Below, piece after piece: positions 9,175 to 16,481 of a stretch of DNA of 64,000 bases (position 1 is the first letter of the stretch; each line of letters starts with the position of its first letter). The DNA comes from Kordia sp. (lineage in GTDB: Bacteria; Bacteroidota; Bacteroidia; Flavobacteriales; Flavobacteriaceae). The stretch spans positions 7,648 to 71,647 of the forward strand of contig NZ_JBOEFY010000037.1 in NCBI RefSeq assembly GCF_050633145.1, read 5' to 3'. The position numbers and the translations under genes are program-made. The notes beneath the pieces were generated by a model. It was not told the origin of the DNA, searched no databases, and saw only the letters and a program-made list of their open reading frames with translations.

Positions 9175-10722
9175 GTGAATAAAGAATTAATAATTAGATC
9201 CAATTCCTCTGAAGTTGATTTTGCCTTGCTAAAGGATGGAAAACTTATTGAATTACATAAGGAAGCAGATAATAATGACTTTGCAGTTGGAGACGTATTT
9301 CTTGCTAAAATAAGAAAACCCGTTTCAGGACTTAATGCAGCTTTTGTAAACGTAGGCTACGAAAAAGATGCCTTTTTACATTATCATGATTTAGGACCAC
9401 AACTTCTTTCCTTATTAAAATTTATAAAACGTGTAAGCACAGGTAAATTAAAAGATTATACATTAAAAAACTTTCCGTTTGAAACCAATATTGACAAAAA
9501 TGGTAGCATCATGGATGCTGTAAAAGCCAATCAATCAATATTAGTTCAAATTGTGAAAGAGCCAATTTCAACCAAAGGTCCTAGAATTAGTTCTGAACTT
9601 TCTATTGCTGGTCGATATATTGTACTTGTTCCATTTTCGGAACGTGTTTCCATATCGCAAAAAATAGAAAGCAAGGAAGAAAAGGATCGATTAAAACGTT
9701 TGGTACTCAGTATCAAGCCTAAAGGTTTTGGCGTTATTGTACGTACAGTAGCTGAAGGTAAAAAAGTAGCTGAATTGGACCAAGATTTACAAAATTTGTT
9801 GACCAAATGGTCTACAATGTGTAAAAAATTGTATAAAGCTGAGCATCCTTCGAAAGTATTAAGTGAAATGAACAAAGCCTCTTCTATTTTAAGAGACATA
9901 TTTAATGAGTCATTCACAGGAATTCAAGTCGATGATGAAGATCTTTATTACGAGATTAAAGAATACGTGCAGAAGATTGCACCAAAAAAAGAGTCTATTG
10001 TAAAATTGTACCAATCTAAAGTTCCACCCTTTGAAAAATATGGTGTAGAACGACAAATTAAAACCTCTTTTGGAAAAACAGTTTCCATGAGTAAAGGCGC
10101 TTATTTAGTAATAGAACACACTGAAGCATTACATGTTATTGATGTAAACAGTGGAAACCGTTCTAACAAAGCCAAAACACAAGAGGACACTGCATTAGAA
10201 GTCAACATGATTGCCGCAAAAGAAATTGCTAGGCAACTCCGTTTACGAGATATGGGAGGAATCATCGTAATCGACTTTATCGATATGACCAATGCAGATC
10301 ACCGCAGAACTCTATTTGATCATTTGAAGACAGAAATGAAAGATGATAGAGCGAAACATAAAATATTACCTCCAAGTAAATTTGGTTTGGTACAAATTAC
10401 GCGACAAAGAGTACGACCAGAAGTAAATATTAAGACACGAGAAGTAAATCCGAATGGAAGTGGTAGCGAAGTGGAAGCTCCAATACTTATCGTTGATAAA
10501 ATTACAACTGATCTAGAAAGAATTTTAGCCAATAAAGATGGCTATAACGGAGTTACGTTAAACACGCATCCTTTTATTGCGGCGTATCTCACAAAAGGAT
10601 TTCCATCCATCCGTTTTAAGTGGTATATGAATCATAAAAAATGGGTAAAAATATTACCAAGAGATGCTTACACGTATCTAGAATATCGTTTTAAAGATAA
10701 AAACGATGAAGTTTATAAATAA
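9175..10722 (+). CDS. rng: Ribonuclease E/G family
   Basis: S1 region (GLNAAFVNVG..KDAFLH), IEHTEALHVIDVNSG, LRLRDMGGIIVIDFIDM. Confidence 0.93.
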   Translation: MNKELIIRSNSSEVDFALLKDGKLIELHKEADNNDFAVGDVFLAKIRKPVSGLNAAFVNVGYEKDAFLHYHDLGPQLLSLLKFIKRVSTGKLKDYTLKNFPFETNIDKNGSIMDAVKANQSILVQIVKEPISTKGPRISSELSIAGRYIVLVPFSERVSISQKIESKEEKDRLKRLVLSIKPKGFGVIVRTVAEGKKVAELDQDLQNLLTKWSTMCKKLYKAEHPSKVLSEMNKASSILRDIFNESFTGIQVDDEDLYYEIKEYVQKIAPKKESIVKLYQSKVPPFEKYGVERQIKTSFGKTVSMSKGAYLVIEHTEALHVIDVNSGNRSNKAKTQEDTALEVNMIAAKEIARQLRLRDMGGIIVIDFIDMTNADHRRTLFDHLKTEMKDDRAKHKILPPSKFGLVQITRQRVRPEVNIKTREVNPNGSGSEVEAPILIVDKITTDLERILANKDGYNGVTLNTHPFIAAYLTKGFPSIRFKWYMNHKKWVKILPRDAYTYLEYRFKDKNDEVYK

Positions 10723-10756
10723 CAAAAAGCGACCATCACTGGTCGCTTTTTTTGTT
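10643..10756 (+). repeat. Left direct repeat (att-like): last 80 nt of rng plus terminator
   Basis: 76/80 identical to 15486..15564, with a 44-nt perfect core (10648..10691 = 15491..15534). Confidence 0.85.
10724..10753 (+). terminator. rng intrinsic terminator
   Basis: aaaaagcgacca-tcac-tggtcgcttttttt. Confidence 0.85.
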
Positions 10757-10979
10757 TGTGGTTGTTATTTACCTTTATAACATATTATGAATATATTTTA
10801 ATATCTTATTAGAAATTTTACTTGTAATCTATTATTAATGTAATGAGTTAGATTAGAATTAGAAATTTTGAACCTATACGCAAAGGCTTGGAGGAAAATG
10901 TAGATTGAAAAAAATCTAACCTACCGAAAATCTAGTGAAATCAAGGGTTATAGAAAACGTTACTCAGAATTAAAAGCGA

Positions 10980-12560
10980 ATGCAAAATAATTTTAAATCA
11001 TATCGAATTTGTCAAATAGCCGTTTCCTTATTTACCGAAGTTGGGTTTGACGAAACATCAATGATTGATATTGCAGAAAAAGCTGCAATACCAGAAGTCG
11101 AATTGTATTCCTACTTTGGTCACAAAAACGATATCATTTTATTCTTTTTTCAAAGCATTAATTCAGACTGGCAGATAGCAGTTGATAATATTTCTTCAAA
11201 AAAAATAGCAAATCGATTTGAGGAGGCACTGATGCTAAAGGTTAAACTTATAACACCTTACGTTGGTTTTTTAAATCAAATATTAGGATTGCTAATCCAA
11301 AGTTCAAAAATTGGTGTAAAAGCTTCAAGAACTTCACACATTCGAGCTATCGGAATGCAAACGATGCAATCTATAATAGATGGATCAACCAACGGAAAGA
11401 AAACACAAAAAAAGGTTCCCCAACTTCCATCAATGATGTATTTCGCGCATTGGGCGGTTTTATTCACTCACATGCAAACAGAAGATAACGAAAAGGTTAC
11501 TACCTTAATAAAATTGTTATCCAAATCACTAAAACATTCTAAGAACTTTGCTCTAATTAAAAAGCTATTTCCAGTGTTCGATGAATTAGGGAAAATTACT
11601 GAGGATTTACTTAATGTGAATACTAAGTCGAAGCATACATTAGATAAGGAAATTTTAAAAGTAATCTTCAACAATCGGAAAGCAACCAATCTCGAAAAAC
11701 AATGTGAATTAAACCAATGCCCTACTTGTTTTGAGGTACATGAACATGCTGTGAATTTCTTTACCAGTCAAAACAAACCCATTCATTTTATTCTGCCTGC
11801 ATTCCCAGCGAAGTCACCAAACCGATCAAAAACAATCGGAAAAACACCAGATCTTGGAGAAGAAATAGCATTAAAAACGTTGGCGTCAATGTGTGCCGAG
11901 ATTGAAAGCATTTATGATCCTGGTGCTCAAATAACAATCTGTTCGGATGGTCGAATTTTTTCTGAACTCGTTGGAGTTTCTGACCACGATGTTACGGAAT
12001 ATGTTCAGGCTGTTTCTGATATGATTGCCCAACATGGAATAAAAAACATCAATGTTTTAAATCTCGAAGATTTCTGTGAAGGCGAAGACTTTGAAGAAAT
12101 GAGAAAGAACTTACTGACTGAATACGCTGAAGATATAGAAAATTTAAAATCTAAGATTAAAACTAAGCCAGATGCATTAAGTTTGTTTAATGGGATGCAT
12201 CGATTTATAACAGAAGATCGTCTTGGAATTGACAAAGACAAATCAAAAACGCGCGTAAAAGAAGAATCAAAACTAATCGCAATTAAAGTCATTCAACACA
12301 GCAATGCTTGGACTCGATTCTTGGCGAATGTTTATCCCGAAGCTATTCGGTTGTCTATTCATCCGTATCCTGCACATCACAAAAAAATAGGGATTCAACT
12401 AACGAAAGCTGAAGACAATTGGTTAACTCCTTGGCATGGAGTTATTACATTACAAAAAAATGACTACTTGTTGATGAAAAAAAGCAAAGCCGAAGAAATT
12501 GGAGCAACGCTAATTTACAATAATGATATTCCGTATTATTATTCCCTAAACGAAGACTAA
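10980..12560 (+). CDS. TetR-family regulator fused to PvcA/IsnA-type isocyanide synthase
   Basis: N-term A..LF..VGFDETSMIDIA..A.....LYSYF..K HTH; C-term ILPAFPAKSPN, PDLGE, ICSDGRIF, SNAW, IRLSIHP, WLTPWHG motifs. Confidence 0.88.
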   Translation: MQNNFKSYRICQIAVSLFTEVGFDETSMIDIAEKAAIPEVELYSYFGHKNDIILFFFQSINSDWQIAVDNISSKKIANRFEEALMLKVKLITPYVGFLNQILGLLIQSSKIGVKASRTSHIRAIGMQTMQSIIDGSTNGKKTQKKVPQLPSMMYFAHWAVLFTHMQTEDNEKVTTLIKLLSKSLKHSKNFALIKKLFPVFDELGKITEDLLNVNTKSKHTLDKEILKVIFNNRKATNLEKQCELNQCPTCFEVHEHAVNFFTSQNKPIHFILPAFPAKSPNRSKTIGKTPDLGEEIALKTLASMCAEIESIYDPGAQITICSDGRIFSELVGVSDHDVTEYVQAVSDMIAQHGIKNINVLNLEDFCEGEDFEEMRKNLLTEYAEDIENLKSKIKTKPDALSLFNGMHRFITEDRLGIDKDKSKTRVKEESKLIAIKVIQHSNAWTRFLANVYPEAIRLSIHPYPAHHKKIGIQLTKAEDNWLTPWHGVITLQKNDYLLMKKSKAEEIGATLIYNNDIPYYYSLNED

Positions 12561-14299
12561 TGGAGTATTCAATTGAAAAAATCGTTCCATTTGGTGTGCT
12601 TATCACCAATACCAAAAACACAGGTTCTATTGAACAATTTGACAAAGAACAACTTTACCGTTGGATTTCCGAATACAAGGTAGTTCTCTTTCGTGGCTAC
12701 ACACAACTACCCAAACAAAAATTGGCTTTATTTGGACAACGATTGGGAAAACCATTGCAATGGCCATTCGGATCGATTAACGAGTTAAAATTTAAACCAG
12801 ATACTAAGAATTATATTTTCACAAATCACAAGGTTCCTGTTCATTGGGATGGTGCATTTAGAGGTACCATTCCGCATATTATACTTTTTCAATGCATCAC
12901 AGCTCCAAAAAAGGAAGATTTTGGAGGAACAACATTTGTAAATACAGAAAAGATATTAGCGAATGCTAGTCAGGCGCAACTCGACGAATGGGAAAAGATT
13001 TCGATAACTTATACCACTGAAAAATTGGCGCATTATGGAGGTGAAATCACGCAGAAATTCATTGCCAAACATGAGGTTGAAGGTCAAAAGGTAATCAGGT
13101 ATGCAGAAGTTGTTGATGACATTAACCCTGTGCAATTGTCTGTTCATGGCCTTGATACTAAAACGTTCGATACATTTGAATCTGAGATTGAACACCTTTT
13201 GTATAGTCCTGAAAACTTATACACGCACAGATGGGAAGATGGAGATCTCGTTTTAGCTGATAATCATGCTCTTTTGCACGGACGAGAAGCTTATAAAAAG
13301 CAGAACGAACGTCATATTCAGCGAATCAACATCTTACACAGACCAAAAAATTCATTAAAAAGAATCATAGAAAACAGCCTAACAATAAGAAGAAAAGAAT
13401 TCTTTGTTGCGGAACTCCCTATATTTATTATTCCTTTATTATTGAGTATTACAGCTTGGAATGACTTCCTTAAACCCAGTTTATATTTAGGAATGATTGC
13501 CATATTTATGTTATTCAATATTGGTGATATGATTAATTGTTATGCTGATTACAAATTAGACTCAATCTACAAGAGCCATCTATCGAATGCAGTATATGAG
13601 CTTGGAAAAAAAAATGTGAAATGGCAAATTATTGTATCTGGAATAGTAGCGTTGGTGCTCACAACTATAATCGCGATTTCTACAAACCAATTGTATTTAA
13701 TACCCTTTACACTTTTTGGAACTTTTATGGGGCTTCAATATTCGATCAAACCATTTAAATTTAAATCCAGCGGAATGTTCCAGTTCTTCTGTCTTTGGGC
13801 AATTATTTTTTCTGGTCCAATGGTATATATTGCGATTATTACATCTGGACTTCCTAGTCTGGTTTACTTTCTAATATTTACCTTTTATGGTTTTCATCAA
13901 ATGGGGATTATTTTATTAAATACTGCAGAAGATTATCCAGAAGATTTGAGCGATAACCTCAATACAGTTATCGTCAGATTAGGTCTGCATCGATCTATGA
14001 AAATCGCTTTTAATATTGTTTTGTTCTCTGGAATTATTCTTAAAGCTTGTATGATTTATTTATTCTACGAACTCTCTGTGCCAATTTACATATATGTATC
14101 TATTCTGATTTTTAGTGTTGGATGGTTAAAAATCGTCACAGAATATAAAACTATTGTCACTAAGTTAACTACGCTTTCTGTGGATGATGCCGTTAAGGAA
14201 ATTAAGAAAAATGGTATGAAAGTTCCTGAATGGCTCAAATTAGGAGCCTATACATTTCTAGTTCCAATTATCACTTATTTTTTATGGAAAATACTCTAG
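12560..14299 (+). CDS. PvcB/IsnB-like Fe(II)/2OG dioxygenase (TauD fold) fused to UbiA-family prenyltransferase
   Basis: VVLFRG, HWD (HxD), GGTTF, HRWEDGDLVLADNHALLHGR..RHIQR; then multi-TM domain with NIGDMINCYADYKLD and NTAEDYPEDLSD Asp-rich motifs. Confidence 0.85.
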   Translation: MEYSIEKIVPFGVLITNTKNTGSIEQFDKEQLYRWISEYKVVLFRGYTQLPKQKLALFGQRLGKPLQWPFGSINELKFKPDTKNYIFTNHKVPVHWDGAFRGTIPHIILFQCITAPKKEDFGGTTFVNTEKILANASQAQLDEWEKISITYTTEKLAHYGGEITQKFIAKHEVEGQKVIRYAEVVDDINPVQLSVHGLDTKTFDTFESEIEHLLYSPENLYTHRWEDGDLVLADNHALLHGREAYKKQNERHIQRINILHRPKNSLKRIIENSLTIRRKEFFVAELPIFIIPLLLSITAWNDFLKPSLYLGMIAIFMLFNIGDMINCYADYKLDSIYKSHLSNAVYELGKKNVKWQIIVSGIVALVLTTIIAISTNQLYLIPFTLFGTFMGLQYSIKPFKFKSSGMFQFFCLWAIIFSGPMVYIAIITSGLPSLVYFLIFTFYGFHQMGIILLNTAEDYPEDLSDNLNTVIVRLGLHRSMKIAFNIVLFSGIILKACMIYLFYELSVPIYIYVSILIFSVGWLKIVTEYKTIVTKLTTLSVDDAVKEIKKNGMKVPEWLKLGAYTFLVPIITYFLWKIL

Positions 14300-15420
14300 A
14301 CACATATGATTGCATAATTATTGGTGGAGGTATCGCAGGCTTATCGCTATCAATACAACTATCTATAAAACAGCGAAATGTGTTATTAATTGAGAAAGGA
14401 AATTATCCGTCTCATAAAGTTTGTGGAGAATATATTTCGAATGAAAGTATTTCTTTTTTAAATGGATTGGGTTTAGAGGAAGTCCTTGCTGATTCTCCTA
14501 AAATAGATCGTTTATTCTTAAGTTCTCCATCCGGAATTAGCGTACGAAGAAAATTGGATATTGGCGGAATAGGAATATCTAGATATAAGCTAGATTATGA
14601 ACTTTATCTACAAGCGAAAAAAACCGGAGTGGATATCAAGACCGATACAAAAGTGACTAATATAACACGAGAAGGACATGGTGCATATAGTGTTGAAACA
14701 TCAAAGCAATCTTATCAGACATCGATTGTGATTGGCGCATTCGGAAAAAACTCTTCTATTGATAAGGTTCTTGGTCTTAATTATAAAGCGAAAAACAAGA
14801 AAAACCTATATGTTGCGGTCAAATATCATATCAAAGCAGATTTTGATACGTCTGTAGTAGAAATGCATAATTTCGAAGGAGGTTATTGTGGAATTTCATC
14901 TATTGAAGACGACAAGATTAATTTGAGTTACATAACTAAGGCTTCAGCGATTAAAAAATTTGGAAGTATTGAAAAAATGGAAAAGCATGTTTTATCAAAA
15001 AACCCACATCTAAGAAAATATTTTGAAGATGCAACGTTTCTTTTTAAATCTCCTTTAACCATATCGCATCTACATTTTGGCACAAAAAAAACAGTTGTAA
15101 ACGATATTATTATGATTGGCGATTCTGCTGGAAATATTGCACCACTTAGCGGGAACGGAATGAGTATAGCTTTGAAAAGTTCGCAGTTAGCTTTCAATGA
15201 AATTGAGCGCTATTTTAATTCTAAAATCTCGTATAAAAAAATGACTGATTCATATAATGAGCAGTATAACATTTTTTTTAAGAACAGAATCAGTCATGCT
15301 AAGTTTATTAATTTATTTTTCTTAAGCCCTTTCTTTTCGAATATAGCTTTCGCGTTCTTGAAAATTTTCCCAAAGCCTATTGATTGGATGAGCAAAAAAA
15401 TACGAGGAGATCATTTTTAA
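14284..15420 (+). CDS. FAD-dependent oxidoreductase (geranylgeranyl reductase / flavin monooxygenase-like)
   Basis: IIGGGIAG, HKVCGEYIS, IGDSAGNIAPLSGNGM; start moved to MENTLD (14284), overlapping the upstream gene's stop. Confidence 0.82.
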   Translation: MENTLDTYDCIIIGGGIAGLSLSIQLSIKQRNVLLIEKGNYPSHKVCGEYISNESISFLNGLGLEEVLADSPKIDRLFLSSPSGISVRRKLDIGGIGISRYKLDYELYLQAKKTGVDIKTDTKVTNITREGHGAYSVETSKQSYQTSIVIGAFGKNSSIDKVLGLNYKAKNKKNLYVAVKYHIKADFDTSVVEMHNFEGGYCGISSIEDDKINLSYITKASAIKKFGSIEKMEKHVLSKNPHLRKYFEDATFLFKSPLTISHLHFGTKKTVVNDIIMIGDSAGNIAPLSGNGMSIALKSSQLAFNEIERYFNSKISYKKMTDSYNEQYNIFFKNRISHAKFINLFFLSPFFSNIAFAFLKIFPKPIDWMSKKIRGDHF

Positions 15421-15485
15421 TTGTAATTATAATCTGCTGCTATTTTTACTACTATTATTAAAATAACATATCCCATTCAAGAAAC

Positions 15486-15597
15486 GGGTTAAAATATTAC
15501 CAAGAGATGCTTACACGTATCTAGAATATCGTTTAAAGATAAAGACGATAAAGTTTATAAATAATAAAAGCGACCAGTGATGGTCGATTTTTTTGTT
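15486..15597 (+). repeat. Right direct repeat: degenerate copy of rng 3' end plus terminator
   Basis: Three substitutions and a 1-nt deletion relative to the rng end; terminator loop gtga instead of tcac. Confidence 0.85.
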
Positions 15598-15707
15598 CCT
15601 AACGTGAATTTCAAACTCGTATTAACTTTTCTGTTTCTATTTTTTCACCACGAATTCACGAATATTTTTCGGTTTGTTTCAAAGCAAAATTATTACTACT
15701 TAGAAAC

Positions 15708-15739
15708 AGATCACTTCGTCATGCTTCCTCGTAATGACG
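15708..15739 (-). repeat. CGTC-tagged REP-like element
   Basis: Minus strand reads cgtcattacgaggaagcatgacgaagtgatct. Confidence 0.55.
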
Positions 15740-15791
15740 TTTCAAAAAATCTCAATTCTCATATCTCAATACTAACAGCTATCTTTACACC

Positions 15792-16481
15792 ATGAAACAA
15801 CAAAACCTACTATTACTACACGGCGCTTTAGGAAGTGAAGCCCAACTCAAACCATTACAAGAACTCTTATCTAACGACTTTAATGTACATACTGTAAACT
15901 TTGAAGGTCACGGCGGACGCACTTCAGATGATGAATTTGATATGGAACGATTTGCCGAAAATGTTGTTGAGGAGCTTCAAACACTAGGAATTTCCCAAAC
16001 ACATATTTTTGGGTATAGCATGGGCGGTTATGTTGCGTTAACTCTTGCTAAGAAATATCCAGAAATGGTAGAAAGCATTGTAACGCTTGGCACAAAGTTT
16101 AATTGGAATTTAGAAAGCGCACAAAAAGAAGTCAAAATGTTGAATCCAGAGAAAATTGAAGAAAAAGTGCCTGCGTTTGCAAAACGTCTTCATGAATTGC
16201 ATCAACCAAATGACTGGAAAAAAGTGATGCAAAAAACAGCCGAAATGATGCTATCCTTAGCGAATGGCAAAAGATTAACTGATTCAGATTTACAACACAT
16301 TCAACATAAAGTACTGATCGGAATTGGATCTCTAGACACTATGGTTACGATTGAAGAATCTGAAAATGCAGCAGCTCAATTACCAAACGGAATTATACAA
16401 ATTATTGAAGCTGTAAAACATCCGATTGAAAAAGTAGATACAAATGTGTTGACAACTGTTATTCGAAAATTTATTGCTTAA
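15792..16481 (+). CDS. Alpha/beta hydrolase
   Basis: LLLHGALG, GHGG, GYSMGG nucleophile elbow. Confidence 0.88.
   Translation: MKQQNLLLLHGALGSEAQLKPLQELLSNDFNVHTVNFEGHGGRTSDDEFDMERFAENVVEELQTLGISQTHIFGYSMGGYVALTLAKKYPEMVESIVTLGTKFNWNLESAQKEVKMLNPEKIEEKVPAFAKRLHELHQPNDWKKVMQKTAEMMLSLANGKRLTDSDLQHIQHKVLIGIGSLDTMVTIEESENAAAQLPNGIIQIIEAVKHPIEKVDTNVLTTVIRKFIA

Follow-up and report, generated by a model that had tools for sequence, protein, structure and literature searches.

Insertion of a predicted isonitrile gene cluster at the 3' end of the rng gene of Kordia sp., with a long duplication of the gene tail and no detected recombinase domain

In Kordia sp. (RefSeq assembly GCF_050633145.1, contig NZ_JBOEFY010000037.1, positions 7,648 to 71,647 of the forward strand; these 64,000 nucleotides (nt) are called the window below), an island of 4.84 kb lies immediately 3' of rng, a gene of the RNase E/G family, between two direct copies of the tail of that same gene. 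Comparison with other genomes of the genus indicates that this block is a real insertion. Its three genes are predicted to encode an isonitrile pathway, and no recombinase domain was found with Pfam in the island or among the tested genes of the window. Since duplicated rng tails enclosing other genes were also met in three other genera, the rng tail is a recurrent docking site across genera of the Flavobacteriaceae. As to the way of arrival, we favour, with about even chances of being right, an insertion with long target duplication, namely a homology-guided single-crossover docking of DNA that would have carried its own rng tail. The features on which the argument rests are the following.

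9175-10722, plus strand: rng (RNase E/G family), the putative docking target, intact, 515 aa (Pfam RNase_E_G, E=4.7e-101)
10636-10756, plus strand: left (proximal) repeat copy, comprising the final 86 nt of the gene with its stop codon and a bidirectional terminator hairpin
15479-15597, plus strand: right (distal, orphan) repeat copy, a decayed rng tail with terminator

The direct repeat of about 121 nt was detected both by a repeat search, as three adjoining blocks, and by gapped alignment, as a single block, the spacing between the copies being 4843, 4842 and 4841 nt across two small indels. The copies are 89% identical (BLAST), and no further copies of the rng-tail repeat were detected by BLAST in the 6.26-Mb genome, which holds these two only. 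A preliminary description of this DNA, made from the sequence alone, had stated that the rng tail with its terminator recurs 4843 bp downstream with 76/80 identity in the coding part, and both values were reproduced by the repeat search and the alignment. The alignment likewise bore out that the left copy is intact and that the right one is frameshifted by a 1-nt deletion; the latter copy additionally carries a Trp-to-Arg replacement, the Trp being invariant across all rng tails aligned, and two more non-synonymous changes. The left terminator is a 12-pair hairpin (10724-10751) with a T-run; that of the right copy (15571-15586) has a mismatched and weakened stem and an inverted loop. The right copy is thus a decaying pseudo-tail, and rng itself stays intact. 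The longest perfect stretch shared by both copies is 44 nt (AAAATATTACC...ATCGTTT) and had been singled out in the preliminary description as a core; with 8-11 differences per 121 nt, such a stretch does not exceed chance expectation (P=0.06-0.2), and its distinction as a site was not borne out.

The loop of the left terminator, ATCACT (10735-10740), is the exact reverse complement of that of the right one, AGTGAT (15576-15581). Terminator loops vary freely between Kordia species, and their exact complementarity here therefore suggests that the two Kordia copies have a recent common origin and that the loop of one hairpin was flipped; the inversion in one copy is possibly a trace of strand switching at the palindrome. 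Apart from this terminator palindrome itself no strong terminal inverted repeats were found, a transposase is absent, and the duplication of 121 nt is unlike the <15 bp left by a transposon. A scan of the island with Rfam gave a single sub-threshold match, which was put down to chance.

The insertion was assessed with a 7.3-kb query across the locus, which was compared with genomes of 18 other Kordia species, one genome per species. The rng gene was found in all 18, at 89-96% DNA identity in the 17 with full-length rng, and in each of them the rng tail with its terminator occurs in a single copy; the cargo was absent from all 18 at this query. A clean empty site is provided by G006, in which the rng terminator is followed directly by a short dispersed repeat and then by an alpha/beta hydrolase gene, in agreement with the window from position 15665 on. 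The hydrolase gene lies near rng in many congeners, at 0-1.1 kb past it in G006, G017, G002, G012, G014, G013, G003, G016 and G010, and the DNA 3' of rng is highly variable in the genus, consisting of 0-1.1 kb of unrelated sequence or of different genes. Over the coding tail and the terminator stem the left copy equals the genus consensus, its loop being species-specific; the right-copy differences that were checked are common to none of the 10 aligned relatives. The closest species genome, G007, was uninformative, as its contig ends within the rng tail and its hydrolase contig has unrelated upstream DNA. Because the 18 other Kordia genomes have a single tail copy and no cargo, the 4.84-kb block is, on the comparative evidence, a real insertion at the rng 3' end, as had been proposed; none of these 18 genomes, all lacking the cluster, carries both repeats.

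That the arrangement is an assembly artefact, or an ancestral one lost in all relatives, is extremely improbable. It is true that only one genome per species was compared and that the G007 contig breaks inside the rng tail. However, the two copies differ at ~11% of positions, and the two junctions are contained in a single contig of 94 kb. In addition, a Logan contig of independent origin (L023; other runs, 19 samples) is 99.4% identical over the island and spans it from core to core, its length of 4859 nt being that expected for a k=31 graph break at the 44-nt repeat. On these three grounds an artefact, which the preliminary description had named as a possible objection, is unlikely, and the Logan contig establishes that a second strain or population carries the same island with its repeats. 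An ancestral arrangement would in turn require 18 independent losses, each of them leading back to one tail copy, and the closest homologues of the cargo beyond this lineage, which lie in other Bacteroidota, are just 59-68% identical.

The rng tail was then surveyed with the last 59 residues of Rng against 401 Flavobacteriaceae genomes, the genomes searched numbering ~450 in all. An orphan tail on the same strand a few kb 3' of rng was found in four further genomes, G051 and G345 (one genus), G097 and G228; a whole-genus search around G345 added G440 and G434, which makes 4 of the 16 genomes there, and in the genus of G097 one of 16 genomes had the duplicate. These six cases outside Kordia belong to three other genera. 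Their repeats are 124-185 nt long and 93-97% identical, and they comprise the last 30-45 codons, the stop codon and the terminator; the cargos range from 0.7 to >6 kb, are unrelated to that of Kordia and mostly unrelated to each other. Both the empty site and the other cargos at rng, for which the preliminary description had proposed to look in relatives, were thus found. Pfam analysis covered ten of the cargo proteins outside Kordia and identified an AHH nuclease toxin domain, DUF6973 in two large lipoproteins and an astacin protease; the six other proteins had no Pfam match. A further candidate, G181, was rejected, being probably just two overlapping contig ends.

The cassettes in the other genera (L072 in G345, L076 in G440, L077 in G434, L073 in G097, L071 in G228 and L070 in G051) have some features of their own. 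Lipoprotein-type toxin-like proteins (with AHH, or with DUF6973 at the C-terminus) are followed by small genes without Pfam matches that resemble immunity genes; the G097 cassette has an astacin-family protease instead of a toxin-like protein, and a homologous gene of 114 aa is common to the G051 and G440 cassettes.

As a control, the same type of survey was made in the 401 genomes with the tail of glmS, and it gave no clear nearby orphan (0/400, against 4/400 for rng), the matches being weak chance ones, one paralogue, one decayed fragment elsewhere and three contig-end overlaps; the enrichment of orphan tails at rng is suggestive only. The left boundary of the repeat lies 85-86 nt before the stop codon in Kordia, G097 and G345, at the junction of CAT and AAAAAATGGG, 103-108 nt before it in G228 and G440 (at GGTTTTT), and at least 130 nt before it in G051 and G434. 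If boundaries were uniform, the coincidence of three out of seven to within 1 nt would have P ~0.013; for the agreement of the three genera within 1-2 nt, P is ~0.01-0.03 under random boundaries. In G228 a third, partial repeat copy is present, and hence two cassettes stand there in series.

Islands that bring an integrase to the 3' ends of tRNA or protein genes are well known, for example SCCmec at rlmH and the mobilizable genomic island (MGI) at yicC. As in these, the target gene stays intact, here presumably by a replacement tail borne on the element, and a displaced duplicate remains; the difference is that such islands bring, or rely on, a known recombinase that acts at a defined core, and none was identified in our case. 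The preliminary description had called the island integrase-less, and the Pfam analysis of the island and of the tested window genes agrees with this. Further, no recombinase was found in any of the seven rng cases (Pfam, with the ten non-Kordia cargo proteins), the sole mobility genes in these cargos being an IS21 pair inside the cargo of G434, identified by eye. Nor was an integrase-bearing element seen at rng among the ~450 Flavobacteriaceae genomes, where a search for tyrosine recombinases next to rng had been proposed. Independent loss of the integrase in every case is unlikely, and so is the lost integrase supposed earlier. Of the earlier proposal that rng is an attB site, recurrent docking is upheld by the six additional genomes, and delivery by a site-specific integrase is left unsupported.

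An integrase acting in trans deserves separate consideration. Cis-mobilizable elements (CIMEs) are decayed integrative and conjugative elements (ICEs) or integrative and mobilizable elements (IMEs), whose attachment (att) sites can be served by the integrase of a related element, with accretion as a result (PMC5704250). If the island were of this kind, the repeats would be attL and attR of a tyrosine or serine recombinase supplied from another place in the genome or by a visiting element; this enzyme would recognise the rng tail and insert, stack and possibly excise cassettes. With CIMEs the island shares att-like repeats that include the end of a protein gene, the lack of an integrase and, in view of G228, tandem stacking. 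The restored gene with a displaced tail, as in elements that target gene 3' ends, the empty sites in relatives, the reuse of rng in four genera with a left boundary shared within 1-2 nt in three of them, and the difference between rng and the glmS control would all agree with it, and tyrosine-recombinase matches are available elsewhere in the genome (11). On the other hand, a cognate ICE, IME or integrase at rng was not found among the ~450 genomes, none of the seven cases contains a recombinase, and the cargos hold no remnant of transfer or integration genes. Additionally, the left boundaries fall into three classes rather than one, and the 44-nt core is not significant. Considering also the other gene tails described below, which would call for many specificities, we regard this explanation, the main alternative to the favoured one, as rather unlikely. 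The nearest tyrosine recombinase (C37:88-549, 307 aa, of Xer-like size) lies ~16 kb upstream of rng, outside the window and ~7 kb before its start, and no link between it and the island is apparent.

When the genome was compared with itself, six further loci emerged at which a gene's final 90-130 nt are repeated 1.4-11 kb downstream, on the strand of that gene, with genes between the copies. All of them belong to the same genome and lie outside the window (contig, positions of the two copies).

C44, 22712 and 24160: tail-duplication locus
C11, 51509 and 53350: tail-duplication locus
C4, 61919 and 63466: tail-duplication locus
C15, 18461 and 19850: tail-duplication locus
C24, 90904 and 92339: tail-duplication locus
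C68, 34385 and 45308: tail-duplication locus

Two of the six were confirmed as insertions against empty sites: C44 has a single-copy empty site in G001, G014, G016 and G010, the insertion being shared by G006, and C11 has one in G012, homologues of its cargo (a methyltransferase and an AraC regulator) being present at another locus in G016, G006 and G010. Tail duplication is thus not specific to rng. No motif common to the seven repeats of this genome was found beyond chance, and a recombinase acting in trans would need many specificities. The repeats end a few nt from the stop codon at several loci, and just past the terminator at rng and C44. In every case the distal boundary of the repeat falls at the limit of conservation between lineages, as it should if one copy came on foreign DNA.

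The origin of the two copies can be followed in the genus of G345 and G434. In G345 the copies differ at five sites, and at four of the five both states are alleles of other species; its right copy is of the G051 type, and its whole rng and left copy are closest to G440. In G434 the left copy has lineage-private substitutions at the same density as the remainder of its rng, and the right copy equals the genus consensus. Because of this allelic pattern, the two copies, at least in that genus, have different histories and are not simple in-place duplicates. The arrival of one copy on foreign DNA would give such a pattern, and so would a later exchange of the flanks by homologous recombination.

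These data bear directly on the explanation that the target was duplicated in place, i.e., that a replication template switch, or the repair of a break at the terminator hairpin, copied foreign DNA and that synthesis restarted farther upstream, at a short microhomology, so that the rng tail was copied a second time. The ends of the repeats just past the terminator hairpin or the stop codon are in line with this, as are the left boundaries at homopolymers, A6 in Kordia, G097 and G345 and T5 in G228 and G440; the flipped loop of Kordia is what strand switching at a palindrome should produce, and Furuta et al. proposed double-strand breakage beneath such insertions (PMC2853133). Nevertheless, the copies in G345 and G434 hold different pre-existing alleles and the loop flip is confined to Kordia, so that we hold in-place duplication to be quite improbable.

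We return to the docking by homology, which in outline would proceed as follows. The incoming DNA would bring along a copy of the final ~86 nt of rng together with the terminator; this tail would recombine with the resident one in a single crossover (Campbell-type) by means of host recombination functions; and rng would remain intact, leaving a second, useless tail copy, which would then decay. Both the guidance of the docking by homology on the incoming DNA and the identity of the enzymes are inferred here. This reading is favoured because the insertion is real, a recombinase is missing, and the event recurs at rng and at other gene tails with no shared motif, and further because the copies in G345 and G434 are allelic, the distal boundaries coincide with the end of conservation, and cassettes are stacked in G228. 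Several points weigh against it. The left boundary, shared within 1-2 nt by three genera (Kordia, G097 and G345), is not predicted by plain homologous recombination and may indicate a sequence-specific step or a hotspot of microhomology. With 90-130 nt, the homology is also short by the standards of an efficient RecA crossover. Besides, the private changes of the Kordia right copy match no sampled relative, so that an imported copy is not demonstrable there, and the reverse-complementary terminator loops suggest a very recent common origin of both Kordia copies. A donor with the cassette beside rng was not found either.

Structurally, the island agrees with a known class, insertion with long target duplication (Nobusato et al., 2000; Furuta, Abe and Kobayashi, 2010, PMC2853133), which was described for restriction-modification genes and the mechanism of which is unknown (PMC2853133). 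As in that class, the insert is <20 kb (here 4.84 kb) and has no transposase, integrase or phage genes, the direct repeats are >30 bp and align to one copy in the empty-site genome, and the repeats overlap a gene 3' end, as they often do there. The difference lies in the cargo and in the target: the class was described for restriction-modification genes and was supposed to depend on their DNA-breaking activity, whereas the Kordia cargo is a biosynthetic cluster and the cargos at rng elsewhere are toxin-like or protease genes, and in the rng cases one gene tail is reused across genera with a shared boundary. The island therefore has the structural features that define these insertions (PMC2853133) and lacks the restriction-modification cargo by which they were surveyed, the latter being a property of the survey and not of the structure. 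In the literature found on long target duplication, by searches not aimed at rng itself, rng is not named as a site of integration. With homology-facilitated illegitimate recombination (HFIR) and Campbell-type insertion-duplication (PMC3240628) the island has in common that a short homology would anchor foreign DNA devoid of its own mobility function. HFIR, however, usually replaces or deletes recipient DNA and does not duplicate the anchor (PMC3240628), and insertion-duplication requires a circular or concatemeric donor, which is hypothetical for the Kordia island.

A wider generalisation may be drawn, which we offer tentatively and consider unlikely to hold: the Flavobacteriaceae would possess a general way of docking cassettes without a cassette-borne recombinase, its landing pads being the conserved tails, with terminators, of housekeeping genes, rng among them. 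With every event the gene would be restored and a further tail would become available for the next cassette, so that the process would resemble integron capture with neither attC nor a linked integrase, being carried out by a trans-acting enzyme or a specialised host pathway.

The island is filled by three co-directional genes preceded by a leader.

10757-10979, plus strand: cassette leader, presumed promoter/operator region, AT-rich, with two ATTAGAAATTTT boxes
10980-12560, plus strand: cargo gene 1, TetR_N fused to an isonitrile synthase (PvcA/IsnA) (Pfam DIT1_PvcA, E=2.7e-79; TetR_N, E=5.8e-8)
12560-14299, plus strand: cargo gene 2, iron/2-oxoglutarate (Fe/2OG) dioxygenase (TauD/PvcB-IsnB type) fused to UbiA (Pfam TauD, E=8.6e-35; UbiA, E=1.3e-15)
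14284-15420, plus strand: cargo gene 3, oxidoreductase dependent on flavin adenine dinucleotide (Pfam FAD_binding_3, E=1.7e-12; gene call on the Logan contig)

Judging from its domains, a DIT1_PvcA synthase beside a TauD dioxygenase, the cargo is an isonitrile gene cluster of the IsnA/IsnB type, and it probably represents a horizontally acquired three-gene pathway with its own regulator domain of the TetR type. Isonitrile clusters are known as those of rhabduscin, paerucumarin and the hapalindole type. The pairing of an isonitrile synthase with an Fe/2OG dioxygenase is common to this cluster and the IsnA/IsnB (PvcA/PvcB) ones; the difference is that here the synthase is fused to TetR and the dioxygenase to UbiA, a membrane prenyltransferase, and that a reductase-like flavoprotein follows. 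Homologues of cargo gene 3, for which an alternative ATG exists at 14230, are labelled in the sources as flavin-dependent dehydrogenase or menaquinone-9 beta-reductase. In the literature searched, a flavobacterial isonitrile cluster with such a make-up was not found described. The ATTAGAAATTTT boxes at 10808-10819 and 10858-10869 are identical, lie 50 nt apart ahead of the gene of the TetR-isonitrile synthase, and may be operator or promoter elements through which the fused TetR domain regulates its own gene; a sigma-70 promoter scan is not meaningful for Bacteroidota promoters.

The G+C content of the cargo resembles that of the host. The fusion of TetR with isonitrile synthase is common in Bacteroidota, its nearest relative outside the lineage being 68% identical, and the relatives of cargo gene 2 (57-64%) adjoin homologues of gene 1. 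The synthase-dioxygenase pair is kept in L019, L025 and L027. In the closest foreign clusters, L025 and L027 (64-68%), the flavoprotein gene is replaced by a gene of a MORN-repeat protein or by a convergent gene, and for this reason the conserved unit consists of the two fusion genes. Scans of genomes and metagenome contigs for the same cassette elsewhere yielded relatives at 36-64% only, and exact-sequence look-ups of cargo gene 3 and of the hydrolase gave no match. A 93%-identical variant of the dioxygenase-UbiA protein (P0143) is encoded on a Logan/ENA contig of 13,380 nt from another lineage. The idea that the cluster is everywhere an element bounded by repeats was rejected, as related clusters in other phyla or genera have no flanking repeats.

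The genes that flank the island are housekeeping genes, and the order is mutY (minus strand), HU, rng, the island, and then genes for the alpha/beta hydrolase, a regulator that binds cyclic nucleotide monophosphates (cNMP) and a CMD-family protein. Members of the protein cluster of Rng bear the name of Kordia ribonuclease G. Right of the island, the native DNA contains two features.

15669-15781, plus strand: native downstream DNA, dispersed short repeat (30 BLAST hits in the genome, its own copy included)
15792-16481, plus strand: alpha/beta hydrolase, the native right neighbour of rng in many congeners (Pfam Abhydrolase_1)

The dispersed repeat has the core ...ACTTAGAAACAGATCACTTCGTCATGCTTCCTCGTAATGACG... 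and a small hairpin of its own (CGTCAT...ATGACG), and many copies of it occur in every Kordia genome.

Taken together, the case of Kordia indicates that a self-contained natural-product pathway can enter a genome without a mobility gene of its own, and it shows that insertion with long target duplication is not confined to restriction-modification genes; as the cargos are of other kinds, the idea that a cargo nuclease drives such events is weakened. Being a landing pad used repeatedly, with one boundary common to three genera, the rng tail offers a concrete site at which the mechanism can be tested. Orphan gene tails could, moreover, serve as cheap markers of recently gained cassettes that are missed by integrase-based island finders, and the cassettes that may be marked in this way include biosynthetic clusters as well as toxin-like proteins paired with small, possibly immunity, genes.

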